Source: Ostreococcus lucimarinus
Lineage: Eukaryota
DNA length: 64,000 bases
Reading direction: 5' to 3' (one strand)
Assembly: GCA_000092065.1 (NCBI GenBank)
Contig: CP000589.1
In this document: one piece after another, positions 4,014-64,000 of the stretch
Layout: each line of letters opens with the position of its first letter
Numbering within the stretch: the first letter of the stretch is position 1
Notes under the pieces: generated by a model
Database searches by the model: none
Told to the model about the DNA's origin: nothing
The model's input: the letters and a program-made list of their open reading frames with translations, nothing else
Position numbers and translations under genes: made by a program

Positions 4014-5090
4014 ATGACGGACGTCGAGCTCAAGGCGTCGCGCGCGCTCGAGGCCGCGCGCGCGTTCCTCGCGCGCTCGCCCGCGAGCGCGCGCGCGCCG
4101 AGCGCGACGACGCGCGCGAGGAACGCGCTGAATGTGAATCTCGACGCGACGTTTTCCGCGGCGACGAGCGACGACGCGAGGACGGACGCGGACGCGGCGA
4201 CGACGGGACGCGCGCCGGAGACGCCCGCGTCGGTGGCGTTGGAGCTGTCGAGCGAGAGCGACGACGACGACGACGCGGCGACGGGCGGCGACGACGCGCG
4301 GGAGAGAGGCGAGGAAGGGCGACGGGTGAGGCTCGAAGTGGACGAAGACGAGGACGTCGACGACGGCGCGCGCGATGGTGGGGAATCGGACTCCGAGGGC
4401 GTGTTCGCGGTGGCGATCAAACGCGAGCGAGACGAGGCGGAGGCGGAGGCGGAGGCGGAGGCGGAGGCGGAGGCGGAGGCGGAGGCGGAGGCGGAAACCG
4501 GCGGCGAGGCGGAGGCGAACGCCGAGACCGCGGCGGCGTTGCGAGCGAATATCGACGCGTTGCGCGAAGAGTTGGAAGAGTCGAGATGGGCGCGCGAGGC
4601 GCTGGAGACGCGCGTGCAGGAGGCGGAGAAGATCGCCGCCGAGGCGCGCTCGAAGACAATCGAGAGCGCGTTGGATCCGCAAAACCAGTTGACGAACGAG
4701 CAAGTGGCCGCGCTCAGGGCGGAGATCGAACAAGTGGAGTATTTGAAACGTTTACTCGCGCGCGCGGAGCAGATGCGTAACGTCGCGCGCGCGGAGACGA
4801 AACAGGCGCGCGACAAACACGAGAGCGATTTGGAAATCGTTCGCAAGGAAGTCGCCGTCATGGACGCCGAGATGGAAAATTTACGGCGGCGCGTGAAAAA
4901 GGACAAAGCGAAAATTGAGGCGATGGAACGCACGACCATCGAGGCCGCGGATGAATTCGCGACGCTGTACTCGCGACAAGAGAACACCAGACGTCTCCTC
5001 GGCGCGTGCATCGTCGCCATCCTCGCCCTCGTCGTGCGCCTCGGTCTATCGGGGCAAACTTTCATGATGAAAAACATGTATCAGTACTGA
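4014..5090 (+). CDS. Coiled-coil, tail-anchored membrane protein with an (EA)10 repeat
   Basis: ATG at 4014 (MTDVELKAS). Acidic region, then (EA)10, then a long coiled coil (LRANIDALREELEESRWAREALETRVQEAEK...), then a C-terminal TM (LLGACIVAILALVVRLGLSG). The start sits 83 nt from the LplA-like gene on the other strand. Confidence 0.5.
   Translation: MTDVELKASRALEAARAFLARSPASARAPSATTRARNALNVNLDATFSAATSDDARTDADAATTGRAPETPASVALELSSESDDDDDAATGGDDARERGEEGRRVRLEVDEDEDVDDGARDGGESDSEGVFAVAIKRERDEAEAEAEAEAEAEAEAEAEAETGGEAEANAETAAALRANIDALREELEESRWAREALETRVQEAEKIAAEARSKTIESALDPQNQLTNEQVAALRAEIEQVEYLKRLLARAEQMRNVARAETKQARDKHESDLEIVRKEVAVMDAEMENLRRRVKKDKAKIEAMERTTIEAADEFATLYSRQENTRRLLGACIVAILALVVRLGLSGQTFMMKNMYQY
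4432..4494 (+). repeat. Hexanucleotide microsatellite (GAGGCG)n encoding (EA)n
   Basis: gaggcggaggcggaggcg... seen directly in the sequence. Read in other frames it gives the poly-Gly and poly-Pro artefact ORFs in the track. Confidence 0.9.
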
Positions 5091-9672: not shown

Positions 9673-11127
9673 CTAAATCAACGAGCCGCCGGTAAATTTT
9701 GCCGGTGACATTGGAGGGTTTTGAGATCTAGCGTCGTTCGACGACGAAGATCCAAAACCGAGATCTTTGGTCAAGGCGGCGAGCGCGTCCAAGGAGTCGG
9801 TCGCGAGCGGCGGCTTTCGCGGCGACGAGCCGCCGCTCAGTCGCGGGGAGGCGCCGGGAGAACCGAAACTGGATAACCCAAATGGATCGGCCGCAGGTTT
9901 TGGAGGACTTTGGGGAACTTGCGCAGCGTGTGGATGCATCGCCGAAGCCTGCGGGGGCGGTGCGAAACCGAATTGATTCGCCGGCGACGGCGCCGCTCGC
10001 GGCGCAGGCGCGCCAAACGACGCGAGCGGGTCGGCCCCCATCGCTGGCTGCGGCGGCGCGTGCGCCTGGTTCGGGGCGTTGAACAAGTTGTCCAAATCGC
10101 CCCAACCAGAAGCCACCGGCGCGGCCGCGGGTGCAGCCGCAGGCGTCGCCGCGGGCGCGCTCAAACCTCCGAGCAAATCGTCGATGCTCGACGTCAGCGC
10201 CGGCGCCGCGGACGAGGCGGAGGAGTAATTCACCGCCATCACCGCGTTCGTCGCGCGAGGTGGCGGCGCGAACGCCATCACACCCGGCGCCGGCGCGACG
10301 CTCGGTACGGGAACGTCTCTAAAAACAATCTTTGGCGCCGCGTTCGCCAACGGCGCGTCGTCTTCGTCGTCGCTCGAATCCGCCTTTTGTCGTCCCGACG
10401 CGAACGCCGGCGCCGGCGCGCTCGGCGGCGCCACGGGAGCGCGTGGTTTCACGTCTTCGTCCGCGCGATTCCACGGCGCGCCGCCAGCGCCACCGCCCGA
10501 AGAAATCGACGCCGTCGACCGTCGCTCCGAGTCGCCGCCGAGCGCGCTCCCTCCCGAAAACGACCCACCCGCGCTCGACGTCGACCCTCTCCGCGCGTGC
10601 GTCCGCGCTTCTTCGCTCGACATCCCCGCGTACTTGCCGCGATTTCTCTCCGCCTTTTCCCTCGCCTCCTCGACCGATCTCGGATCTTCCACCAACGCCT
10701 TGATCTTTTCCGCTCGATGTCGCACGTTCACCCCCTCATCCTTCCCTCGCGCGTCCTTGTACTCGAACCTCAGCGCGCCGTCCATCATTCGCCTTCGCCT
10801 GACGTCCTCCGCGATCGCTCGATCGCCGTTCGCGACGAGATACTCGACGACGGTGAGCGCCTTGTACGCGCGTCGCCACTCCTCCGGCGCGCTCTTCAAG
10901 CGTTTCTCCAGCACCTCGCGCACGACGTCCCACTTCCCATCGCGCGTGAGCCGCGCGATCGCGCGCAGCTGCTCCCCGTGCGGGCCCCAGGGCTCGGAGT
11001 TCGTCGCGTCGCGGACGAGCGCTTCGTCGTCGCCGATGCCTTTCCATTGATTGACGCGCTTCTTCGCCGCCTGCGCCACCTCGTCCGGGATCGCGGACTT
11101 GATCGTCGTCAGCGCGGCTTTGAACAT
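9673..11127 (-). CDS. Epsin-like ENTH-domain protein with a Pro/Ala-rich tail
   Basis: ENTH domain from ATG 11127..11125: MFKAALTTIKSAIPDEVAQAAKKRVNQ...NSEPWGPHGEQLRAIARLTRDGKWDVVREVLEKRL...ALTVVEYLVANGDRAIAEDV. The unstructured tail carries DPF/FG-like peptides. Confidence 0.75.
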   Translation of the reverse strand: MFKAALTTIKSAIPDEVAQAAKKRVNQWKGIGDDEALVRDATNSEPWGPHGEQLRAIARLTRDGKWDVVREVLEKRLKSAPEEWRRAYKALTVVEYLVANGDRAIAEDVRRRRMMDGALRFEYKDARGKDEGVNVRHRAEKIKALVEDPRSVEEAREKAERNRGKYAGMSSEEARTHARRGSTSSAGGSFSGGSALGGDSERRSTASISSGGGAGGAPWNRADEDVKPRAPVAPPSAPAPAFASGRQKADSSDDEDDAPLANAAPKIVFRDVPVPSVAPAPGVMAFAPPPRATNAVMAVNYSSASSAAPALTSSIDDLLGGLSAPAATPAAAPAAAPVASGWGDLDNLFNAPNQAHAPPQPAMGADPLASFGAPAPRAAPSPANQFGFAPPPQASAMHPHAAQVPQSPPKPAADPFGLSSFGSPGASPRLSGGSSPRKPPLATDSLDALAALTKDLGFGSSSSNDARSQNPPMSPAKFTGGSLI

Positions 11128-34916: not shown

Positions 34917-35112
34917 CGCGCGTCGACGCATCGCGCGGGCGTCGACGCATCGCGCGGGCGTCGACGCATCGCGCGGGCGTCGACGCATCGCGCGCGTCGC
35001 GTCGGTCGCGCGCGTCGCGTCGGTCGCCATCCATCCATCCAACCATCCGACCGGGACATCGATCCATCCATCCATCCATCCGTCCGGGACATCGATCCAT
35101 CCATCCATCCGA
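34917..35112 (+). repeat. Minisatellite cluster in a divergent promoter region
   Basis: Three and a half copies of a 21-nt unit (cgtcgacgcatcgcgcgggcg), then two copies of tcgcgtcggtcgcgcgcg, then (CCAT)n-based units (ggacatcgatccatccatccatccgaccg, about 3 copies). Seen directly in the sequence. Confidence 0.85.
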
Positions 35113-35156
35113 CCGGGACGTCCGCGCGTCCGTGCGTCCTCCGACGAACGGGCAAC

Positions 35157-51372: not shown

Positions 51373-52427
51373 ACACACTCACGCACGTCGACATGTCGGT
51401 TTCCATGCGCATTTCCTCCACGGCCGGGTGCGTGTTCGCGCTCGTTCGTTCCGCGTCCGCGTCCGCGTCCGCGCTCGCGCGTCGCGCGTTCGCGCCCGTC
51501 GCGCGCGGTCGCGCCAGACGGATCGTATCGAGCGTATCTTCGATGCGCTCGAGCGTGCGATCGGGGGCGCGCGCGCGTTCGCCCGGCGCGCGCGCGCGTA
51601 CGCGCTCGGGTCGCGCGTCGATGACGATGCGAACGAATCGAACGCGTCGCATCGCGCTCGACGCGCCGCGTCGTTCGCGGCGTGGACGCCCGATTCCGTC
51701 GACCCTTCGATCGCCGACTGACTGATATCCCTCCTCGCTCTTCGCGCTCGCCAGGCTCAAGACCCGCGTCGCGACGAAGACTCGCGCGTCCCGCGGCCCG
51801 GTGGCGGTGTCCGCGAACGCCGACCGTCCGGTGTGGTACCCGGGTAAGGCGCCGGCGGCGCACCTCGATGGGTCCTTGCCGGGCGACTACGGCTTCGACC
51901 CGCTCTCGCTCTCGGCGGATCCGGAGATGCGCCAGTGGATGGTGCAAGCCGAACTTCAACACGCGCGCTGGGCGATGTTGGGCGTCGCCGGTTGCGTTGC
52001 CCCGGAGCTTTTGACCAAGATCGGTGTCGCGGACTTGCCGAACTGGGTCGACGCCGCCACTTACCAATACTGGGCCCCGGGCGGGACGCTGTTCTTCATT
52101 CAAATGGCCATGTTCAACTGGGCCGAAATTCGCCGCTGGCAAGACATGAAGAACCCGGGCTCGGTCAACACGGATCCGTTGTTCGGCTACAACTCCAACG
52201 ACACCAACACGGACGTTGGCTACCCGAAGGGCTTGTTCGACAAGTTCGGCTGGGCTAAGGATGAGAAGACCACGGCGGAGCTCAAGTTGAAGGAGATCAA
52301 GAACGGGCGCTTGGCGATGCTCGCCTTCCTCGGCATCTGCGCGCAATACGTCCAAACGGGCGTCGGTCCCGTCGAGAACTTGTTCAGCCACATGGGTAAC
52401 CCGGGTCAAGTTGGTGTTTTCATGTAG
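51373..52427 (+). CDS. Chlorophyll a/b-binding light-harvesting protein (LHC family), two exons: 51373..51407 and 51755..52427
   Basis: Exon 2 is a canonical LHC (PVWYPGKAPAAHLDGSLPGDYGFDPLSL...EMRQWMVQAELQHARWAMLGVAG...KEIKNGRLAMLAFLG). The track ORF begins at GTG with an in-frame stop just upstream and no ATG. A 35-nt first exon (ATG 51373, MSVSMRISSTAG) ends at the donor GG|GTGCGTG. The acceptor CAG|G at 51753/51755 restores a Gly codon (phase 2). This gives the transit peptide MSVSMRISSTAG-LKTRVATKTRASRGPVAVSA. Confidence 0.8.
51408..51754 (+). other. LHC intron (347 nt; GTGCGTG donor, ACTGACTG branch region, CAG acceptor)
   Basis: Needed to supply the start codon and transit peptide. 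Shares TCGATCGCCGACTGAC with plastocyanin intron 1. Confidence 0.7.
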
Positions 52428-52585
52428 ATTGGACACTTTGCGCGGGTCTTTTCGGGTCTAAACTACTCTTATAATGAACGTCAGTGAGACTGTAAACGTC
52501 GCTCTTCGCTCGCCTTCGTCAAGTAAGAAACTGCTTGTTTTACATCGTGCCTACATAGAATTACTACCGTTCCCGCGCCGTGGTG

Positions 52586-53365
52586 CTACTCCAACATTTC
52601 GCCGTCATCGTGCAGCTGCTTCCCGATGACGGATGCCCACTCACCCTGAGAGTACGCGAGCTTCACTTCCTCTTCGCTGAGCTCGCGGATCCTCGACATC
52701 GGGCCAGCCGCGCCGCGCCCCGTGGTGGCTGATATTGTCGTCCCTGTGAGTTTTTGAACGAGCGCGCGCGTCTAAAGTCAGTCTTCGAGTGTGCACGAGT
52801 CACGGCGCGACGATGACGCGTGCGTCGACGCTTGAAACTGACGTCGCGTTCGCTTCGCTTCGCTCTGCGTCTTACCGAACACGGTGGCGTTGGGCGCCGT
52901 CTCCAACACCGGTAAAGGCGGCACACCGACCGCAATCATCCCGTGTTGCAAGAAAAACGAGTGAAACGTCATCAAACAGATTTCGTGCCCGCCGTATCCT
53001 TGTCCCGCGCCCCCTACTTCGGTGAACGAGCTCCCTATTTTCCCCTTCAACGCGCACCCGTTTGAGTGAAACGCCGCGAGGCGGTCGAAAAACGCGCTCA
53101 TCTCTGGAGCCATGCGACCGTGTCTCGTCGGTGAACCGAAGATGATGCAATCGCTCTCTAGTATGTCCTCGGGCGTCGCCACGGCGCAGTCCAGAATCCC
53201 TCTGTCGTACGCCGACGCGTCGTCCTCGCCGCGGATCGTGTCTCGCACGCGCAGCACGCGCACGTCCGCCCCCTCCACCGCGCGCGCGCCCTCGGCGATG
53301 ACGTTGGCGAGCGTCACGAGCCTCGCGGACTTGCTGAAGAAGACGACGGACACGCGGAACACCAT
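52586..53365 (-). CDS. WrbA-type flavodoxin-like NAD(P)H:quinone oxidoreductase (FQR1-like), two exons: 52876..53365 and 52586..52743
   Basis: Exon 1 is the track ORF up to ...HGMIAVGVPPLPVLETAPNATVF. A GTAAG donor follows (minus strand). After a 132-nt intron (52744..52875, ACTGAC branch, CACAG acceptor), exon 2 encodes GTTISATTGRGAAGPMSRIRELSEEEVKLAYSQGEWASVIGKQLHDDGEMLE. This is collinear with the E. coli WrbA C-terminus ([33 protein letters not shown]). Phase 1. Confidence 0.75.
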
Positions 53366-53766
53366 GAGGCGCGAGCGCGGCGAACCGACGCGCGCGAGAC
53401 GGCGCGGCGCGAGAGACGCGCCGACCGGTGGCGACAGACGCGGACCACCGGCGCGATTTCGGAGGTCGGCTGTCGCGCGGGACGTGGGGCGGCTAGGGTC
53501 TAGCGTTCATGACGATCTACCGCTTCGCGTCTCTTGAATACGACAAAAGTGCGTGGGACGATTTTTTTATGGGACGACGCGATATTCGCGATATTCGCGC
53601 GGATGGGTGGCGTCGTCGCGCCCGCGACGCGCGCGCGCCACTCGTCGGCCGAAACCGCGGTCGTTCGACGACGGGCGACATGGCGAACGCATACGCGACG
53701 CACGGCGCGTGCCTCCGCGTGTGCCCGAAGTGTCGAGGGTGCGGGACGACGACGCGACCGCCGACG

Positions 53767-54360
53767 ATGGCGGTGACGACGACGTCCAAGATGGCGACGC
53801 GAGGCGCGACGACGACGGTGACTCGCGCGTCGTCCGTTCGCGGAGAATCGGACCACGGTGAGGACATGCGTGAAGTCGTCGCGCGCGATGCTTCCGCGCC
53901 GACGACGCGGCGACGGGCGCTCATCGCCCTCGGCGCGGCGGCGATGAGCTCGAGCGGCGTCGTCGCCGAGCCGGCGAACGCCGAGCTCGGGCCGAACGAT
54001 TGCTTGGAGTGCGGTGGACGAGGCGTGGTGGCGTGTGATATGTGCGGAGGAACGGGTAAATGGAAGGCGCTGAACCGTAAGCGGTCGAAGGATACGTACG
54101 AGTTCACGGAGTGCCCGCAGTGCTTCGGGCGTGGTATTCGAGTGTGTCCGGTGTGCTTCGGCACGGGCGAACGCAACGTAAAGGGTTTATTGCGTAGAAC
54201 CGAAGCGACAGAGCTCGTGAAGGCGATGCAACGCGGTGAACTCCGACCGGGTGACGTGCAAGCGCTCATCGAGGAGGGTAGGTCGATGAACACCGAACGC
54301 GGGGGCTTCGACGCCGCCCCCGCGCCCGCGAAGCCAGCGGCGCAGCGTGAATTTTTATAA
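53767..54360 (+). CDS. Thylakoid-lumen DnaJ-like zinc-finger protein (CxxCxGxG repeats; PSA2/LQY1/BSD2-type)
   Basis: Four CxxCxGxG units ([21 protein letters not shown]...[20 protein letters not shown]). Bipartite targeting: an S/T-rich transit peptide, then a twin-arginine signal ([26 protein letters not shown]). ATG at 53767 (MAVTTTSK). Confidence 0.6.
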
Positions 54361-54514
54361 CGCCGCCGCCGGCACCGCACCGCGCACGGTAGAGATGTGA
54401 TGGTTTACTAGAAAAGGGCGAGTCCACGCGCGCACACGGCACGACCTTTGCTTGATTTTATTGTAGTGATTTGATGAACGCATTTCTAACACAACTACTG
54501 TAAGTCCATCTCGG

Positions 54515-55465
54515 CTACGCAGCGAGTCCTCTCTGCAACTCGTCGATGAACAGACGCTTCACACCTTCGTGGGTCGTTGTTTTCAGTGATTTCGACGCGA
54601 GCTGCAAGAAATCTCGCTTCCTGCGTCGTAACTCCGCGAGCGTGAGCACGCGCGCGCACCGCAACGTGGGCATACCTTCGCCGAAACCGTACACCGAACA
54701 GCAAGATCCGCCGTTGCTCTGTTGAGCCGACATGATGGTTTCGACGACATCTTGCGCGGCTCTATCCATCTCATAGCGCAAATTGGTTCCGCTCAAAGGT
54801 GAATTTTGCGTCGCTTTGTTCGGGACGAGCGTTCTCGCTTGTTTTGTAGTGTTTGACGAGTCTCCTCGTACGTGAGCGCACAACGCGTCGTACAAATCGG
54901 CTTCATGTCCCGGCGCGTCCAGGCCCGGTCGAAATGTAAATAAAGGCGAATCCCAGCGATTGTTCGCGATGGGATGTTCAAACCGAAAACACAAGTCTCG
55001 TAGTATGGTCTCGTCGTACGCAGACTCTCCCGCCTCGTCATTCATTTGCGCCACGCGTTCGTCGCTCGCGTCGACGTACACGACGCAGTATCGCGCCGCC
55101 GCCGCTCGAGCCGCGCACCAGAGCTCGTATCGAAAGCCTTTGATCGCGTTCAACGAATCTAATATCACGCACGGTCCCTGAGCGTGCAGAATTCTATCGC
55201 AAGCACTCCTCAACGCGCCTCTCGTCATCTTTTCCTTCGCCGCGTTCTCATACGCCTCGTTCCTCGCGCCGGCGTTGACGCTCGCCTCGTCCACTATCGT
55301 CACCTCAGCGTTTGCTCCATCGGGCGCGGGCGCGCGCAGGCGTTCGGAAAGCTTCGAAACGACGGATGACTTTCCTGAACACGGTTTACCGCACATCACG
55401 ATCAAGCACGCCGAAGGGCGCGCCGTGGAGGCCTTCGTCTGTGTCAGCTCGCGCGACACGTCCAT
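54515..55465 (-). CDS. KTI12: KTI12 homolog (Elongator-associated P-loop protein)
   Basis: N-terminal P-loop (CLIVMCGKPCSGKSS) and the overall KTI12 layout, with a conserved C-terminal region. Confidence 0.65.
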   Translation of the reverse strand: MDVSRELTQTKASTARPSACLIVMCGKPCSGKSSVVSKLSERLRAPAPDGANAEVTIVDEASVNAGARNEAYENAAKEKMTRGALRSACDRILHAQGPCVILDSLNAIKGFRYELWCAARAAAARYCVVYVDASDERVAQMNDEAGESAYDETILRDLCFRFEHPIANNRWDSPLFTFRPGLDAPGHEADLYDALCAHVRGDSSNTTKQARTLVPNKATQNSPLSGTNLRYEMDRAAQDVVETIMSAQQSNGGSCCSVYGFGEGMPTLRCARVLTLAELRRRKRDFLQLASKSLKTTTHEGVKRLFIDELQRGLAA

Positions 55466-55769
55466 TCGGGTGGCGGCGGTGACGCGCGGGCGCGGTTCAG
55501 ACGACGATGATGCTCGAGGCTCGATGCGACGACGCCGATACTAAATGCGTCGTGCTTTGACAACGCCGCTTCGCGCGCGGCGACGTGTTACGAACACGCG
55601 TCGGTCTGAGGCGTACCCGCGGTGCGGCGACGAGTGGCGCAGCGTCGGCGCGCTCACGGATGTTTTAGAGAGTGCGACGTTTGGACGCGCACATAGCGGC
55701 ACGCATCGACATCACTAGCGTGCACAGTTTTCATCACACGTTCTCTACGTCTACTCTTCAGAGCGACTG

Positions 55770-57386
55770 CTACGCGTACTCGCGCGAAGGATATCGCACG
55801 CGTATGGCCATCGTATCGCCGCCCGGTTCGTTGTCGCATTCTAAAACACCTCCAGCGCGCTGGATGAGACGGCGAGCGATGCGCATGCTGGGAGCGTCTG
55901 TATCCACATACACTGAACCGTTCGCAAGCGATGCGTCCACCTTAACTTCGACGCCGACGCCAGTTTGGACGTCTCGCGCGTATGGTTCTTCCACGGCGAC
56001 GTCTATTACGGCGCCGCGAGGAGCAGCCATAAGCGCGAGGTCGATGATCTGCGCTAGAGCAGAGCGCACGTCTTTCGGACTCGCATAGACAACTGTTTCC
56101 GGATTCTCACTTTCGGGCAGCGTCGCTCGCATCGCCAAGCCGCTGCTTGTCGCGACGACGTCTGATGTCGCGAGAAGCGTTATGACGACCTTGGTGACGT
56201 CGCACATTTCATCGCTCGAGACGACTGTCAACGCGTCGGTCCTCATCGAATTCGACGTCACGCGCGCGCGTGTGCCGTCAGTTAGAAACTTTTCGCTGAC
56301 GTCCGTGCGGCCACCGCTCGCACCGTACAACACGCCTCGTTGCTCGATGGATGAGTTTGGATACAGAGCGCTCTCCAACTTGACGCTGAGCTCGGCGAGC
56401 GCGTCTCCTTGCTGCACTAACGCCTCCGCCATATCACCCGCCGGATCGTCCGGCTTCAAGTAAGTCTTCAGCATGCCCCCGAGCGTTCTCAGCGCGGTTA
56501 GAGGTTGCCGACTCTCGTATAAATATCCACCGACGGTTTGATCGGCGCGGTACGCGGCGGCGACGGCGACGACATTGTTCCTATGAATCGCCCATGCGTC
56601 TACGAAGGCGCTCGCGGAGACTTCGAGAGACTTACGCTGTTTCTTCGTAAACGCCACCGAGGCGTCGCCCACGGCGTCTCGTCCCATGCGTTCGACGACG
56701 ATGAGCCCGATGAGAGACTCCTCGTACGCCAAGCACGCCACGACGGCGTTCGCTGACGGCAAATCGAAAGTTTTCTGAGACGCCAACGTGTCTTCGGGTG
56801 CGTCCCAATCAATCGCGCTCGCGCCGTCTTCGTCGTCGTCGACGTTTTCACTAATATCCGTGTCGAATCCCCCCTCGTCCCAATCTCCCGTGAAGCTGAG
56901 AGTTGATTTTTTATTCGTCGACGCCGTTGACGCCCCTCGCCGCGGCCAGGCGGCGACGCGCGTCAACCGCATGCTCGTCGTCCCACCGGACCCACGCAAA
57001 TAAATCATACATTTCGCGTCATCGCCATCGTCGTCGTTGGACATCATTCTCGCCACCAGTTCCGCGTGCGTGTGCGCGAATCGCGCGAAGAGGTCGACTT
57101 CGCTCTCGCGCGCCGCCGTCAAAGTCGTCGCCTGTGATCCCCCGTCTGATCTCGAAAGCGCCAGCGCGTTCGAAGGTGCGGTCGCGTTCGCACCCGTGGG
57201 CGTCCACTGCGCCTCCTCGTCGTCCGACGCCACGGCGTGAGGCGGGCGTCGTCCTCGTCCTCGCCCTCTCTTCGCCTGGGCACCGCCGCGCGCGCCGCGT
57301 GCGCGACGACGCGCGCCGCGCGACGGCGACGACGACGGCGGCATCGCGCGCGCCGTCGTCGATGCCGCGGACGAAGCCATCGCCAT
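55770..57386 (-). CDS. Hypothetical organelle-targeted protein with a GAF-like region and a C-terminal histidine-kinase-like ATPase-type segment (possible chloroplast sensor kinase-like)
   Basis: Central region (VVACLAYEESLIGLIVVERMG...) and a C-terminal N-box-like segment (VRSALAQIIDLALMAAPRGAVIDVAVEE...GVGVEVKVD). The identification is weak. Start at MAMASSAAS (ATG ~57386). Confidence 0.35.
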   Translation of the reverse strand: MAMASSAASTTARAMPPSSSPSRGARRRARGARGGAQAKRGRGRGRRPPHAVASDDEEAQWTPTGANATAPSNALALSRSDGGSQATTLTAARESEVDLFARFAHTHAELVARMMSNDDDGDDAKCMIYLRGSGGTTSMRLTRVAAWPRRGASTASTNKKSTLSFTGDWDEGGFDTDISENVDDDEDGASAIDWDAPEDTLASQKTFDLPSANAVVACLAYEESLIGLIVVERMGRDAVGDASVAFTKKQRKSLEVSASAFVDAWAIHRNNVVAVAAAYRADQTVGGYLYESRQPLTALRTLGGMLKTYLKPDDPAGDMAEALVQQGDALAELSVKLESALYPNSSIEQRGVLYGASGGRTDVSEKFLTDGTRARVTSNSMRTDALTVVSSDEMCDVTKVVITLLATSDVVATSSGLAMRATLPESENPETVVYASPKDVRSALAQIIDLALMAAPRGAVIDVAVEEPYARDVQTGVGVEVKVDASLANGSVYVDTDAPSMRIARRLIQRAGGVLECDNEPGGDTMAIRVRYPSREYA

Positions 57387-57557
57387 CGCCCGTCGCGCGT
57401 TCGCCGCGTCCGAGCGCGCGCGAGTGCGACGACGACGCGCGCGCGCGTCGACCCTCCACCCTCGTCGCGCCGCGGCGACGGGGGTGCGCGTCGAGGCTTT
57501 CGTGTCCTCATTCGTCGTCGCGCGCGCACCGTCGACGGTGCGATACGGACCGCCGAC

Positions 57558-58375
57558 ATGCCGTCTCGAGGAATGTCCGCCGAGGTGCGACTCGCGCGGA
57601 TGGGCCATCGCCGCGCGCGCGCGATCGAGCGTCGAGAACGCGACCGCGACCGCGACCGCGACGCGCGGTGCTCAGATTTGAATTGAAATCGATTGAAATC
57701 CATTCAATCCAACGCGACGGGCGAGCGAACGAGGCGACGACTGACGGATGTCGACGACGCGCGTCGATGTGGCACGCGTAGGACAAACGTATCACCGTGC
57801 TCGCGATGCTTCACGAGTCTCGCGAGCCGTGGTTGCTTAAAGACGTAGAAAAGGCGGCGTCCAAGCGCGGCGTCGTGATACAAGCGGTGAAAGACGTCGT
57901 GCAATCGCTCGTGGACGACGACTTGGTGCACGTGGATAAAATTGGGACGATGAATTGGTACTGGGCGTTTCCGGGCGAGGCGACGAACAAGGCGCGCGCT
58001 GCCCTGGAAGCAGCCGAATCGACAAAGGCGCAAATGGACGCCGAAATCGCGGCGTTGGCGAAGGGAGTGGCGGAGGAAAAGAAGAAGAATCCAGTCACTG
58101 CGGAACACGAAGAAATGAGCGCGGGCTTGAGCCAGGCGAGAGAATTGAACCAGAAGCTGCACGTCGAGCTCGAAACGTTTTCGAGCTCGAACCCAGAAAC
58201 CGTCGATGCGATGCGCCAAGGCGCGAAGATTTCAAAGCAAGCGGCGAACGTGTGGACTGACAATGTCTTCATGATGAAATCGTGGGCGGAGAACAAGATG
58301 GGAGATAAGGAACAAGTGGCGCAGTTCTTTAAGACGGAGGGGATTAATTTGAATACGTTCGACTACATTGAGTGA
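57558..58375 (+). CDS. MND1: MND1 (meiotic nuclear division protein 1; Hop2-Mnd1 complex), two exons: 57558..57584 and 57782..58375
   Basis: Exon 2 matches MND1 (VKDVVQSLVDDDLVHVDKIGTMNWYWAFP) but lacks the N-terminus; the track ORF begins at GTG. A 9-codon exon 1 (MPSRGMSAE|GTGCGAC) with branch ACTGACGG at 57739..57746 and acceptor GTAG|GAC at 57781/57782 gives MPSRGMSAE-DKRITVLAMLHESREPWLLKDVEK. This aligns with human MND1 ([34 protein letters not shown]). Confidence 0.7.
57585..57781 (+). other. MND1 intron (197 nt; GTGCGA donor, ACTGACGG branch, TAG acceptor)
   Basis: Inferred from restoring the conserved MND1 N-terminus. Confidence 0.6.
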
Positions 58376-58511
58376 ACGCGCTGAACCCACGACGATGACG
58401 CCGACGACGAAACGACTGATTGATTTTTTGTACAACCTGTAACTTACTTCATCGAAAATCACAATATCCTTCACAACAACTATCTACGCTCTATAATTCG
58501 ACACATTCCAA

Positions 58512-59669
58512 TCACGCAGCGCCCTCGAGGACGAGAACGTCGTCTTGTTCGATCCGCGCCGGAGCCGCTGGTGGTTTTCGATTAAACACCGCCGACGCCG
58601 CGGCTTCGGCGCTTCCGCTCTTTCTGAAGACGAAAGTTGTGTACAAGTACGCCGCCTCCCACTCTTCATCCGTCATGCTCATCGAATCATCACCCATGAT
58701 TTGTGACCAAAGTGCCGACGCTCGCTCGCGAGTCTCCACCCCGCTCAATTGCGAATGAACGTAATCGTGAAAATTTCGCCACTCCACTAGCTCGAGGCCG
58801 TATTCAGCCGCCAACGAAACCCACACGTCTTTCGGCACCATGCACTCGCGACACTTCGTGACGGCGTCGGCGAGTGTAAACGTGTACTCGATGCCGAATC
58901 CATCGGTCTGGTTCGTAGGAAACACTTTGCTCTTGAACGCGTCGTCGAACTCAACTTCGTACACGGGATTCCAAAAAGCCAAACCATCCGCTTCTCGAAG
59001 TTTTCTCACCAGGACGTTGGAGTCCACCGTGGTGCCTATGAAATATCCTCCCGGCCGTAACATCGTGCACACGTTTCTCAGCGCGCGACGCGCGCGCTCT
59101 TCGGTCGACAACGAGTAGTGTATGGCAAACTGGCACGAAATCACATCCAGCGTCCGCACGTACTCCGGCAACACAGACGCCAAATCGACGACAAAGGCGT
59201 CGCCGGCGACGAATTTTGCCGGGAACTCTCGCGCGTGCTCGGCGTTGTACCGCTTCACGGCGTCCCGTCGCACGCTTTCTAACGCTATATCCACCCCCAA
59301 ATACGAGGCTATCTTCGCCCTGGCGTACTTTTTCAAATCGCCACCCTTCCCGCACGCCAAATCCATCACGCGGTCGTTTTCGCGAATCTTCGACTGCAAC
59401 AAGTTGGACTTGACCCAGTTGTTCAAGCAACGCAAGCGATAAATCGGTGATTGCTTACGCTCTTGGTGCGTTTGATTCGCGCGTCCGCTGTAATGCTGCG
59501 CCACCAATCGCGCGGCGTCGTCCTTCGTCGCGGTCGACGACGCCACCGCGCCGGTGTCCTCGTCCGCCGCACCGCCGTCGCGCGTCGACGGCGCGTCGGC
59601 GCGTTCGACATCGCCGGCGTCGCCGGCGTCCTCACCGCTTCGTCGTCGCTTACCCGCGACGACCATGTC
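58512..59669 (-). CDS. RNMT: mRNA cap guanine-N7 methyltransferase (RNMT/ABD1)
   Basis: SAM-dependent methyltransferase motif I (VMDLACGKGGDLKKY) and the collinear RNMT core (FVAGDAF...ISCQFAIHYSL...LRPGGYFIGTTVDSNVLVRKL...WNPVYEVEF). Start at MVVAGKRRRSGED. Confidence 0.8.
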   Translation of the reverse strand, partial: DMVVAGKRRRSGEDAGDAGDVERADAPSTRDGGAADEDTGAVASSTATKDDAARLVAQHYSGRANQTHQERKQSPIYRLRCLNNWVKSNLLQSKIRENDRVMDLACGKGGDLKKYARAKIASYLGVDIALESVRRDAVKRYNAEHAREFPAKFVAGDAFVVDLASVLPEYVRTLDVISCQFAIHYSLSTEERARRALRNVCTMLRPGGYFIGTTVDSNVLVRKLREADGLAFWNPVYEVEFDDAFKSKVFPTNQTDGFGIEYTFTLADAVTKCRECMVPKDVWVSLAAEYGLELVEWRNFHDYVHSQLSGVETRERASALWSQIMGDDSMSMTDEEWEAAYLYTTFVFRKSGSAEAAASAVFNRKPPAAPARIEQDDVLVLEGAA

Positions 59670-59855
59670 GCGTCGTCGGCGCGCTGGTGAGTGATGAGTG
59701 AACAACGTCGCCCCGGTGACGAGATGATGACGCGACGGACGGACGGATTGGATTGCGCGTCGATCGACACGATCGGCCAATCGTCGGCGGACGTCACTTT
59801 CGTGCACGCACGAAACGCTCGACCGAGTGAATCACGCACTCGCTCAACTCTTCGC

Positions 59856-60296
59856 ATGTCTCGCGTCTCGACGCTCAACCTCACGTCCAAGCTCGTCAAC
59901 TGCGCGGCGTTGAAACGAACTTCTCGACACGCGCCGACCGCCGCGCGATCGATCAAGACGATGGCGTCCATTGAAATCACGAAAGGCGTCACTTTCGACA
60001 CCGTCGCTCGCGAATGGCGATGCAAATGGAGCGAAGATGCCGATAAGGCCTCGCTCGCGGCGGCGCAAAAGGTGCTCGACAAGCACTTGCCGGCGATGAA
60101 GGCGAAAGGCAAGGTCCAACGCACCGTGTGCGGCGGTTGCCTCGACTTCAAGGCGAACACGTCCATGAGCGCTGACGCGTTCGGCGCTTGGGAAGCCGAA
60201 GGATTCGCGCCGGAAAAGCAATTCTTGGAAGAGCTCGCGGCGATCCCTGGAATCTCGAGCATCGAAACGCAAACGTTCACTTTGATGTCCATGTAA
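59856..60296 (+). CDS. Hypothetical small protein, probably plastid-targeted; no recognised family
   Basis: The non-repetitive C-terminal ~110 aa (MASIEITKGVTFDTVAREWRCKWSEDADKASLAAAQKVLDKHLPAMKAKGKVQRTVCGGCLDFKANTSMSADAFGAWEAEGFAPEKQFLEELAAIPGISSIETQTF) follow an S/T/R-rich presequence. The ORF begins at 59691; the internal Met at 59856 is preferred. Confidence 0.35.
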   Translation: MSRVSTLNLTSKLVNCAALKRTSRHAPTAARSIKTMASIEITKGVTFDTVAREWRCKWSEDADKASLAAAQKVLDKHLPAMKAKGKVQRTVCGGCLDFKANTSMSADAFGAWEAEGFAPEKQFLEELAAIPGISSIETQTFTLMSM

Positions 60297-60579
60297 GCGC
60301 GCGACTCGCCGACGAGACTCCTCGGCGTCGAAAAGCTCCTCGCGTCGTCGTTGTCGTCGTGTTCCACCGCGGCGACCGTCGCGCGATCGCGGCACTTTCG
60401 TAAAGCACCAATCCTACTTAAAACGACGCGCTCGTTGTAATCTTAAAGCGCAGCCGTCATCAGACCGGCGAACGCGCCACTCGACGAAAAACCACTCGAC
60501 GAGACTGATAATCTGGAGTCAAGCAGAATTCTTTATTATCCCGCACTTCGCGCCGCACCTCGGACGCGCGGCGCGCGTT

Positions 60580-62025
60580 ATGGACGAAGATGAAGCGATT
60601 GATACGCTCGCCGCCATCCTAAACCTCGAGCACGATCGCGCGCGGTGCAGGGAGTTGCTCGAACGAACTGGTTTCGATTTGCAGAGCGCCGTCGACCGAG
60701 GCTTAAGCGGCGACGACGCGGCTGCTGACGTTGGGTTACGACAGCGTCGACGACCTAATACTAGTCATGGTGGCACGAGCGCTAGACGCGATGCTCCCCG
60801 CGCGCGCCCAACGTCAGGGTCGGGGCGCGTTCGACGAAGCGGCGGGGGTTCCAATCCAGTCTCCTTCGTCGCCGCTCTCGGCTTCGGCATCGTCAAGGCT
60901 GCGGTGAAGCTTTCTGTGGGCATCGTTGACGCCGCATTGCGTGTGGTTCTTCCCTCAGGCGTGTACTCGCGATTCTCGCGACCGCTATTGCTTCTCGCAG
61001 CCAGCTTCGACTCGTCCAGCGCGCTGCCGAGAGGCGAAGGGGGCGCCGAGTCTCGCGCGCGCGAGTTTAGCGAGTGGTTCTCGGAAATGTTTCATGATGG
61101 CGATACATCGCGTGGCGTGCATTTCGTGCAGCTGTCACATCGCGAGGCTGTCGCCTTTGCGCAACGAGAGACGAAGCTCTTGTTTGTCTACCTGCACGCG
61201 CCGGCGCACCACGAATCGGAGCTTTTCTGCGCTCAGGTTCTCGCCGATCCCACAATGACGGCGTATGTGAACCAAAATTTCGTTGCATGGGGTGGAAACG
61301 TGCGTGACGGTGACGCGTTCTCCTTGTCCGCAGGGCTGAAACCGACGGGGTATCCGTGCGTGGCGATTTTAGACTCTGTGTCCGGCGGAAGCGGAAGCGC
61401 GAGTTTGGTGATGTCGTGCGAGGGGTTCATTGATGTTGATGTTTTGATTAGTGCGTGTGAAGAGGCGCTCGCTGGTCAGAACGCTAGCTTAGATGACGCG
61501 CGCGCACGACACGCCGAAGTCGACGCCAGTCGGCGATTAAGAGAGGAGCAAGACGCGGCGTTTGCCGAGTCTCTCGCTCGAGACGCGGCGCGCGCGAGAG
61601 AGTTGGACGCACAGCGTGAGGCGGAAGAGGCTGAACGTAGACGTGTGGAAGAGGAGCGGCGCGCGGTAGAAGAAGAGACAAAGAAAGCCGAAGAAGCCGA
61701 GCGTCAACGCGTCGAGGAGATTGAAGCGCGGCGAGCCTCCAAGGCATCGAAACTTCGTGATGAACCAGCCGACGGCGCCGACGGCGTGTCAAAGCTCGCC
61801 GTCCGACTCCCAGACGGTTCTCGCGCCGAGCGTCGATTTCATAGCACGGATACGATTGCCGACGTCTACGATTTTGTCGATACGTTGGAAGAGCTCGACG
61901 AGGTCTCGTATTCGTTGGTGACCAACTTTCCTCGACGAACGTTCGCGCGAAGCGAGCGCGTGTCTCTCGTCGACGCAGGAGTCCACCCGAATGGCGCGAT
62001 GTTCGTACAAACTGAGTCTTCGTGA
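60580..62025 (+). CDS. UBX-domain protein with UBA-like, UAS/thioredoxin-like and coiled-coil regions (FAF1/FAF2/PUX-like p97 adaptor)
   Basis: N-terminal UBA-like helix (IDTLAAILNLEHDRARCRELLERTGFDLQSAV); UAS (FVQLSHREAVAFAQRETKLLFVYLHAPAHHESELFCAQVLADP...GYPCVAILD); E/R-rich coiled coil; C-terminal UBX (LAVRLPDGSRAERRFHSTDTIADVYDFV...TNFPRRTF). Confidence 0.75.
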   Translation: MDEDEAIDTLAAILNLEHDRARCRELLERTGFDLQSAVDRGLSGDDAAADVGLRQRRRPNTSHGGTSARRDAPRARPTSGSGRVRRSGGGSNPVSFVAALGFGIVKAAVKLSVGIVDAALRVVLPSGVYSRFSRPLLLLAASFDSSSALPRGEGGAESRAREFSEWFSEMFHDGDTSRGVHFVQLSHREAVAFAQRETKLLFVYLHAPAHHESELFCAQVLADPTMTAYVNQNFVAWGGNVRDGDAFSLSAGLKPTGYPCVAILDSVSGGSGSASLVMSCEGFIDVDVLISACEEALAGQNASLDDARARHAEVDASRRLREEQDAAFAESLARDAARARELDAQREAEEAERRRVEEERRAVEEETKKAEEAERQRVEEIEARRASKASKLRDEPADGADGVSKLAVRLPDGSRAERRFHSTDTIADVYDFVDTLEELDEVSYSLVTNFPRRTFARSERVSLVDAGVHPNGAMFVQTESS

Positions 62026-62053
62026 CGACAATGTAAAAATGCTCCTCCCTACG

Positions 62054-63250
62054 CTAGCGATGTCGATGCGTGCCGCGATGTGCGTGTCCAAACGTCGCAC
62101 ACTCTAAAACGTCCGTGAGCGTGATGACATCGAAAGGTGCGTCGCTCGTCTTGCTCACTATGTAGACGCGTTGCTTGTTGAGTTTTGAAAACCATTCGTA
62201 GCGAAAGCACGAGTCAATCTCGACGGTAAACACGCCCGCGGGCGGGACACCGCTGAGCAAATCTGTTCGTCGAGGATCAATAGCGAGTGCTCGCTTTCGT
62301 TCGTGCTCGTATTGCTCGCGGCGAAACGCTCTCGACTTCTCAAAAAACGCGCTCTTAAAGCCGCCTTCGGCGTCATCGTCCGGTGCGCTGGCGGCATAGC
62401 CGCTGTAACTCGTGCCGTGCGTCAGCGCGATGAACTCGGCGACGGGCAAACCCAGCACGCTAAAATGTTCACGCGTCAACGTGCGCAAGTCGCCATTCGT
62501 GATGTCTGCAATGATTCGACCGTCTTTCGAGACCACGGCGGCGCCAGAGACTTGTTTTTCTCTCATTTTACGATAGCACTCGATCGTTGGAGTGCTCGCG
62601 TCGACGGTGACGAATTCGCGTTTGCGCGCGTCGCTCCCGAATCCGAGATCTCGCAATGTGTAAGTTTCCAAAGAGTGGGTTAGCTTGCGATCGTGCTCTG
62701 CCAGCCACTGCAGTACATCAGTTTGCGAAATCAGGCGGCGCAAGGCGCCATCGGCTTCGAACAGCACGACGCGGTGCACAATCGTGCTTCTGTCCGCGTC
62801 GCCACCGAAGAATCCCTTAACGATTAAATCGTACACCGATGTTGCGGCCGCGTTAGGCGTGTACATGAGATCGGCATCGTAACCAAGAACTTTGATAAGG
62901 TGTGTGTCGGCGACAACTCTTTCAACTTTTTCGATCTCCGTCATCGCGGACAACATCGTCGTCACGGGTTTGATGATGTCAAGCAGAGCTTTGACGGCGT
63001 CACGTACGTCGAAAACTCCGATGAGCGTTTCGAGAGGCTCGTTATCTTCGGGTAAGCGCGTATCGAGAGTGTCCGCGACGATCACCACGGGCGCGCTCAG
63101 GATGTTGTGGCGCGCGAGAACTTCAAGAGCCGTGGCGACGTCGTCGTCATGCCGCAGCGTCACCACGCGCCTCGGAAGTTGTTCGCGCTCGAGCTCGGCG
63201 ACTTTCGCGCTCTTCAGGAGTAAATCGCGAGCGTCGATGGTACGACTCAT
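62054..63250 (-). CDS. CBS-domain protein with four CBS motifs (SNF4/AMPK-gamma-like)
   Basis: Two Bateman pairs (DLLLKSAKV...RRVVTLRHDDDVATALEVLARHNILSAPVV; ...KDGRIIADITNGDL...; C-terminal RVYIVSKTSDAPFDVITLTDVLE). ATG 63250..63248 (MSRTIDARDLLL); the longer ORF reads through the 5'-leader repeats. Confidence 0.65.
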   Translation of the reverse strand: MSRTIDARDLLLKSAKVAELEREQLPRRVVTLRHDDDVATALEVLARHNILSAPVVIVADTLDTRLPEDNEPLETLIGVFDVRDAVKALLDIIKPVTTMLSAMTEIEKVERVVADTHLIKVLGYDADLMYTPNAAATSVYDLIVKGFFGGDADRSTIVHRVVLFEADGALRRLISQTDVLQWLAEHDRKLTHSLETYTLRDLGFGSDARKREFVTVDASTPTIECYRKMREKQVSGAAVVSKDGRIIADITNGDLRTLTREHFSVLGLPVAEFIALTHGTSYSGYAASAPDDDAEGGFKSAFFEKSRAFRREQYEHERKRALAIDPRRTDLLSGVPPAGVFTVEIDSCFRYEWFSKLNKQRVYIVSKTSDAPFDVITLTDVLECATFGHAHRGTHRHR

Positions 63251-63259
63251 GGCGTCGCG

Positions 63260-63344
63260 CGTCGCTGTGAGGTCGCGCGTCGCTGTGACGAGGATACGGG
63301 GACGCCAACGGGCGTCGCTGTGAGGTCGCGCGTCGCTGTGACGA
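63260..63344 (+). repeat. Direct repeat (2 x 32 nt CGTCGCTGTGAGGTCGCGCGTCGCTGTGACGA) immediately upstream of the CBS gene start
   Basis: Two near-identical copies (63260..63291 and 63313..63344) separated by a 21-nt spacer. Each copy itself contains an internal GTCGCTGTGA(G/C) duplication. Confidence 0.85.
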
Positions 63345-63876
63345 TGTCTCCGAGACGTCCCATGTTGGATTTCACATTCGCGAGCGAGCGCGCGTGAAGA
63401 TACACATGCGCGAACCACACGGGGATCGCGAATGAACGATCGCGGGCTAAAAATAGAAGAAACAGGAATGCGAAACGATTGACCGACGTCGCAGTCGTCG
63501 TCCCGCGTCGTCTCCCAGCGCGCGTCGCCCGCACTCGCCTCCCTGAACTAGGGTTAGAAACTAGGTGTAGAAACTAGGGTTAGCAGTTTCTCTGGAACAT
63601 GACGCTTTTGCCGCCCTGAAAGTTGCGCGAGTAAAGGGGTCACCGAAACCACTACACTGGCGGTCGACGACGCTGGAATTTTGCGTACACGCATGAAACA
63701 CGCATTTGCATCTGTGTACGCGCGCGTTTCGCGGAACTCTGGGTGCCGGCGGCGACCCGGACCTTTACGTCGTCGCGGGCGTAGGCCGCGGTTTGGGTTT
63801 TTTTGGAAATGTGTGATACTGGTTTTGGGTTGAGGACTACGTTAGTGAGGGCGGGGTAAACGAGGGTTTGGAGGAC

Positions 63877-64000
63877 TAGGGTTTAGGGTTTAGGGTTTAG
63901 GGTTTAGGGTTTAGGGTTTAGGGTTTAGGGTTTAGGGTTTAGGGTTTAGGGTTTAGGGTTTAGGGTTTAGGGTTTAGGGTTTAGGGTTTAGGGTTTAGGG
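63877..64000 (+). repeat. Telomere: (TTTAGGG)n, plant-type, G-rich strand running 5' to 3' toward the end
   Basis: About 17 perfect tandem TTTAGGG units reach the last base of the window. They are preceded by degenerate variants (AGAAACTAGGGTT at 63540..63580; GAGGACTAGGG at 63870). Confidence 0.95.

Follow-up and report, generated by a model that had tools for sequence, protein, structure and literature searches.

The 64,000-nucleotide stretch of Ostreococcus lucimarinus DNA analyzed here (the window) very probably closes with a telomere-capped chromosome end in which one copy of an element of ~0.5 kb, common to many chromosome ends, lies between the telomere and the first gene. This end architecture is already known for O. 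lucimarinus, and our results reproduce its published description (Chaux-Jukic et al. 2021, Nucleic Acids Res 49:7571; PMC8287924) from independent data. The additions made here are modest and consist of several junction and element alleles at one end in nature, together with a signal of exchange between ends and a probable relocation of the terminal gene.

Results

The terminal telomere array

The KTI12 open reading frame of the window is identical to XP_001419870.1 and the MCM10 open reading frame to XP_001419658.1 (O. lucimarinus CCE9901; 670,853-bp NCBI contig), and the GC content of ~62% and the compact gene layout also fit O. lucimarinus. Tandem Repeats Finder delimited a TTTAGGG array at 63877-64000 on the plus strand, with a period of 7, 17.7 copies and 100% matches. 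The heptamer occurs 17 times in the 64 kb, in every case on the plus strand within 63882-64000; 1.1 occurrences were expected by chance, and none of 100 shuffled sequences reached 17. These values bear out the ~17 perfect repeats, G strand outward, that had been noted in the preliminary description. The array reads 5' to 3' on the plus strand through the final base of the window, which is the orientation of a right-hand terminus. TTTAGGG is also the telomere repeat given for Ostreococcus in an earlier compilation (PMC1955436, Table 2). With its identical unit, perfect array and outward G strand, the tract resembles the Arabidopsis-type telomere of plants and most green algae, a likeness that covers just the 124 nt of tract within the window.

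The same locus was compared among independent marine-metagenome contigs. A search of public metagenome assemblies located the exact sequence of the protein encoded by the last gene, a CBS-pair protein, in 175 blocks. In three of the contigs of this locus (L002, L003 and L025), the side of the CBS gene that faces the telomere in the window terminates in a CCCTAAA tract, and others with the exact CBS protein (L004-L010) stop inside the subtelomere. Together with eight contigs of other chromosome ends, these three carry the tract in terminal position and in the correct orientation. No sequence distal to a TTTAGGG tract was present in any contig of this or the other ends, short-read contigs being unable to cross long arrays, and no locus had an array flanked by unique DNA both proximally and distally, the arrangement that an interstitial telomeric sequence would show. 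The interstitial or artefactual tract against which the preliminary description had cautioned was thus not encountered. This termination of independent contigs in CCCTAAA repeats shows that the tract marks a true right-hand chromosome end, as had been proposed. The O. lucimarinus genome itself was reportedly finished to its telomeres by Palenik and colleagues in 2007 (Palenik et al.). Because the independent contigs and this finished genome point the same way, the end of the window is taken to be the end of the chromosome. Collectively, these sequence comparisons confirm positions 63877-64000 as the physical right end of the ~0.67 Mb O. lucimarinus CCE9901 chromosome, with a conventional plant-type (TTTAGGG)n cap.

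Organization of the telomere-adjacent element

The element occupies 63368-63876, a length of ~0.5 kb in a single copy per end, as delimited by a 20-mer scan, BLAST of 19 loci, flank clustering and alignment; it extends to ~0.6 kb if the leader of the CBS gene is counted. Homology among ends begins at the telomere junction, 63876. Alignment of the ends revealed a common anatomy, in which the telomere is followed by ~100 nt of degenerate CCCTAGTCCTCCAAA-type units, a variable stretch, a conserved core that holds two to four 13-nt units, and a proximal part that finishes near the first gene. In the window, the distal part of the element is a telomere-to-subtelomere transition at 63781-63876 on the plus strand, made up of degenerate G-rich, telomere-like units and recognized by GC skew and by comparison of the junctions of the window, L025, L003 and L002. 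These 96 nt adjoining the telomere contain 40 G and 9 C (skew +0.63), and on the C strand their units are 15-mers.

The 13-nt units of the core lie at 63546-63583 on the plus strand, where Tandem Repeats Finder and the alignment of ends identified 2.9 copies of AACTAGGGTTAGA with 84% matches. Each unit joins a 6-nt spacer to TAGGGTT, which is one complete telomere repeat in cyclically permuted form. Most ends have three perfect copies, and the middle copy is mutated in the window strain. Telomere-like units had previously been placed at 63540-63580 in 2.5 copies; their presence was upheld, and their limits and copy number are revised here. These AGAAACTAGGGTT units are not local debris: two to four copies are found at nearly every end, and they are a conserved feature of the element.

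Apart from the 13-nt micro-repeat of 2.9 copies, Tandem Repeats Finder detected no tandem array in the element, and the alignment contained one copy per locus. No second copy of 63368-63876 was present within the 64-kb window. An Rfam scan of 62000-64000 at E<=1 returned only a chance snoRNA match (20 bits; gathering score, 120), and when the conserved core was folded as RNA on each strand, the z-scores were +0.6 and +1.9, with no structure signal.

Distribution of the element over chromosome ends

Scanning JGI metagenome contigs with the 20-mer GGTGACCCCTTTACTCGCGC, which lies at window ~63625-63644 on the minus strand, yielded 19 loci. By BLAST against the window, one of them (L025) was the same chromosome end, and the homology of the other 18 (81-94% identity) was confined to window ~63370-63990, their sequences diverging from there. 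The inner limits of homology vary between 63368 and 63494 across loci and extend to 63252 for L026. A telomere tract in the expected orientation was carried by 8 of these 18 loci. The inner flanks clustered into ~12 groups including this end, and thus into at least 11 other gene contexts; as the metagenome loci may derive from several related Ostreococcus strains or clades, the ~12 flanks do not necessarily represent one genome. The 20-mer adjoins the core with the 13-nt units, so the apparent conservation of the core is partly due to ascertainment.

The first open reading frames at the other ends were unrelated to one another and included SET/Rubisco-LSMT, dynein heavy chain, DnaJ, AAA_11 helicase and YqaJ-like proteins as well as several unknowns; a CBS-encoding gene was absent from all other-end loci. 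One of these loci, L027, lies at the end of another O. lucimarinus chromosome, since its ATAD3-like protein clusters with XP_001419248.1 (701,771-bp contig). In L026, homology to the window takes in the CBS leader as far as 63252, two bases short of the ATG, and a different gene follows. Because L026 homology reaches this position, essentially all of the 626 bp that separate the telomere from the CBS gene are shared with other ends. The ~500 bp of subtelomeric DNA that the preliminary description had called unique are therefore nothing of the kind: the same sequence is found, at 81-94% identity, at 11 or more other ends with unrelated flanks.

Other parts of that description fared better. Neither a satellite array nor a helicase or other subtelomeric gene family was found here or at the 11 other ends sampled, in line with the earlier statement that this end lacks a subtelomeric gene family, helicase or repeat block. 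The hallmarks of a classical complex subtelomere, namely kilobase-scale arrays or duplicated blocks beside the telomere and a paralogous first-gene family, were likewise absent from the 12 ends. The passage from gene to telomere, which had been described as unusually abrupt, is so when set against large genomes only; in this genome it is the norm, and it has been published as such (PMC8287924).

The first long open reading frame was transcribed toward the telomere at 10 of the 12 sampled ends, a small sample assessed from open reading frames only. The CBS gene and the open reading frame of L026 were the two exceptions, and only there did the shared homology reach the start codon. Two further loci, L014 and L020, belong to the same record (GenBank JACLAB010003728.1, 18,541 bp) and are two inverted copies of the element, a few hundred nucleotides apart. 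Both copies are cut at the equivalent of 63701, with similar inner flanks and no telomere tract; the pair represents either a chromosome end with a fold-back palindrome or a hairpin artefact of the assembler. In L019 (JGI Ga0209666_1001567), where a dynein heavy chain fragment comes first, GC content was 52.5%, compared with ~60% at other ends, and this locus may come from a low-GC outlier chromosome region of Ostreococcus.

Variation at the telomere junction

Comparison of the window with L025, L003 and L002 revealed four telomere junction alleles at this one end in wild populations. The junction of the window is the shortest, its array sitting directly and in phase on an internal seed that ends in CTAGGG (...GGACTAGGG). 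The junctions of L025 and L003 are ~15 nt longer and that of L002 is ~200 nt longer, and among the other ends the element of L022 exceeds that of the window by ~730 nt. The CBS gene is 99.7-99.8% identical among the junction alleles. Four junctions beside a near-invariant gene are what would be left if the end had been shortened and telomerase had then healed it at a TAGGG seed, as may have happened here.

The alleles also differ by many indels and variants within the element. The distal element of L003, which belongs to this end, is 85.7% identical to the window and 92-94% identical to the copies at other ends (L012, L023 and L029), and the CBS gene of the same contig is 99.7% identical. As the distal element of L003 is closer to the copies of other ends, these data suggest exchange between ends and not local divergence.

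The terminal gene

The last gene of the window, at 62054-63250 on the minus strand, encodes a CBS-pair protein of 398 aa (Pfam CBS, E=2.5e-12) and is annotated by JGI as an AMPK regulatory gamma subunit. It is transcribed away from the telomere and starts 626 bp from it, which brings single-copy housekeeping genes that close to the chromosome end. The genes inward of it are ordinary and include UBX/FAF, mRNA cap N7-methyltransferase, Mnd1, KTI12, MCM10, DNA polymerase lambda and RNase II, among others. The 5' leader or promoter region at 63251-63367 on the minus strand, recognized by repeat scan and allele comparison, contains a duplicated GTCGCGCGTCGCTGTGAG motif and is homologous to the leader of L026. 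Tandem Repeats Finder identified an 18-nt unit in 1.9 copies at 63254-63288, and the motif recurs at ~63310-63345. Both the identity and the start of this minus-strand CBS gene at 63250 and the reach of its leader repeats to ~63345 agree with what had first been read from the sequence. The leader is indel-polymorphic among L001-L010, one ~35-nt copy of the motif being absent from L001, L002 and L010 and an insertion of ~75 nt being present in L006 and L007; the coding sequence is nearly invariant.

Homologs of the CBS gene in three related species or strains (P0003, P0004 and P0011; 59-64% identity) are all internal and have other neighbors. The neighborhood of the internal homolog (L030, L031 and L035) comprises an AAA_11/12 helicase, an SH3 protein, a NAD_binding_10 protein and a hydrolase/DAGAT. 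The L027 locus (JGI Ga0257114_1002239) is syntenic with that neighborhood and has the ATAD3-like AAA ATPase in place of CBS. Because the homologs are internal and L027 is syntenic with ATAD3-like instead, the terminal CBS gene was probably relocated, the presumed direction of the move being toward its telomere-adjacent site.

An inverted relic of the CBS 3' terminus lies at 55593-55721 on the plus strand, between KTI12 and the next gene, and its DNA is 90-93% identical to 62051-62128 over 71-78 nt. In it, the last 40 codons can still be recognized, at 52% amino acid identity. The relic and the CBS 3' end flank 6.3 kb that contain an unannotated open reading frame of 612 aa, Mnd1, the cap methyltransferase, an open reading frame of 200 aa and UBX. 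From this arrangement we infer that the relic may be the footprint of an inversion with staggered breaks.

Alternative explanations

A chromosome that continues past an interstitial or artefactual TTTAGGG tract is very improbable. The window does stop at 64000, and one metagenome contig carries the CBS region on into other genes. This contig, L001 (ENA ERZ27251070 k141_819621, 161,895 bp), is 99.0% identical to window 52058-63510 (11.4 kb) and then passes, with no telomere, into LSM12-like, SPC12, Rieske and SET genes. Its join, at 9715-9790, consists of 77 nt of filler that in part matches a third locus, L013, and the breakpoint lies in a GACGACGACGG low-complexity tract inside the shared element. 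L001 was rejected as proof that the chromosome continues, as it lacks the tract, is a mosaic of three pieces and has a different downstream neighbor of LSM12 from that seen in three other contigs (L020, L039 and L040). Against a continuing chromosome stand the 3 contigs of this locus and 8 of other ends that terminate in a correctly oriented tract and the want of any contig with sequence beyond one. By its sequence, L001 is probably chimeric. Were it real, some wild strains would have lost the telomere and the distal element here and become fused to an internal site near another end, so that the end would be polymorphic in the species; this would be compatible with a telomere-capped, element-bearing end in CCE9901. 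The length of the contig, its 99.0% identity over 11.4 kb, the filler at the join in place of a clean repeat overlap, the position of the breakpoint within the shared element and the known variation of Ostreococcus karyotypes (PMC5498103) speak for such a fusion. We nevertheless consider it unlikely, since the arrangement was present in 1 of the 24 contigs read, L010 has the same proximal haplotype as L001 with a normal subtelomere, the gene after LSM12 is another one in L020, L039 and L040, and a low-complexity breakpoint and filler matching L013 are both typical of de Bruijn graph chimeras.

Equally hard to sustain is the idea that the telomere adjoins ~500 bp of unique, essentially structureless DNA on a chromosome nearly without a subtelomere. 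Within the window it has some appeal, as the 64 kb hold no other copy of 63368-63876, the element contains no tandem array besides the 13-nt unit of 2.9 copies, and ordinary genes continue up to the end. However, the same sequence is telomere-adjacent at no fewer than 11 other ends at 81-94% identity and has been published (PMC8287924), and the differing flanks rule out that the 18 loci are misassembled copies of one end. A more serious contender concerns not the structure of the element but its meaning. The element could be functionless, a neutral by-product of truncation, recombinational repair and healing, with the telomere-like units as relics of old tracts, and we regard this as a substantial possibility, if somewhat short of an even chance. 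It would accommodate inner boundaries that differ by end (63252-63494), the many indels and variants between alleles, the lack of a structured-RNA signal in the core and the mutation excess near telomeres (PMC5455958). Set against it is the core with the 13-nt units, which keeps its position and its 2-4 copies at nearly all ends, an observation that is partly ascertainment because the core is seed-adjacent.

Discussion

The preferred explanation of this end is a telomere, one copy of a shared element and then the first gene, and several tentative steps may be proposed for how it arose. The element may have spread and been homogenised by ectopic recombination between ends, through gene conversion or break-induced replication. 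Truncation may also have recurred at the ends, each time followed by telomerase healing at an internal TAGGG seed; the telomere of the window strain would then sit directly on such a seed, and the L002 allele would have kept ~200 nt more. Both proposals are put forward because of the junction alleles, the exchange signal in L003 and the literature. By analogy with other systems, the telomere-like units might be sites for putative Myb-type proteins that bind telomere repeats, and might serve as a boundary or as a backup seed, and the proximal element possibly supplies a putative promoter and leader for the CBS gene. Each of these four steps is offered with less than even confidence.

A bolder proposal, which we hold to be doubtful, is that the element would form a self-contained minimal subtelomere module that combines a healing seed, a TAGGGTT protein platform and a first-gene promoter or terminator. 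If true, copies of such a module would pass from one end to another on population time-scales, and new or remodelled ends would be capped by them. It could also explain how the relocated CBS gene came to be a terminal gene, with a start codon directly after the shared sequence, as at L026.

The element resembles the published Type-I (<=411 nt, 21 ends) and Type-II (<=844 nt, 15 ends) shared sequences of O. lucimarinus, for which no subtelomeric tandem repeat but 5' truncations and a variable telomere junction phase were described (PMC8287924). Like them, it comes from the same species, adjoins the telomere, is not tandem, is common to many ends and measures a few hundred nucleotides, a likeness drawn from the published description. 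This copy may be a Type-I sequence or a 5'-truncated Type-II one. The 5' truncation and differing junction phase have their counterpart here in four junction alleles at one end; the alleles found in the wild at one end and the signal of exchange are what the present analysis adds to PMC8287924. Species-specific sequence is likewise spread across green-algal chromosome ends in the Sultan arrays and spacer of Chlamydomonas reinhardtii and the Subrel arrays of Coccomyxa (PMC8287924). In contrast to the single copy per end without an array found here, those are tandem units of 166-850 bp extending over kilobases.

A parallel of another kind is provided by short telomere-adjoining elements outside the algae. 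Yeast core X and STR elements contain TTAGGG motifs bound by Tbf1 (Tbf1/STAR), and plants have telobox/TRB sites. Like these, the O. lucimarinus element is short, shared, telomere-adjoining and furnished with isolated telomere-like units, which may be sites of putative Myb-type binding. It has no sequence relationship to them and is accompanied by no Y'-type helicase element, so that the analogy is one of mechanism only.

The end described here represents a minimal working eukaryotic chromosome end, in which a telomere and ~0.5 kb of shared sequence are followed by housekeeping genes. Such an end should be useful for the design of synthetic algal chromosomes and for studies of end protection without heterochromatic arrays. 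Subtelomeres of Mamiellophyceae have been defined by AAACCCT repeats, and an excess of mutations was reported within 1 kb of these repeats (Krasovec et al. 2017; PMC5455958). Our results account for subtelomeres as mutation hot spots in such mutation-accumulation studies, with the caution that the mapping of subtelomeric reads is confounded by paralogous copies.

Two further repeats were recorded in the repeat scan of the window. CATCC-rich imperfect repeats with a period of ~33-41 nt lie at 35020-35139, and a (GAGGCG)n coding microsatellite lies at 4434-4499, within 4410-4559.
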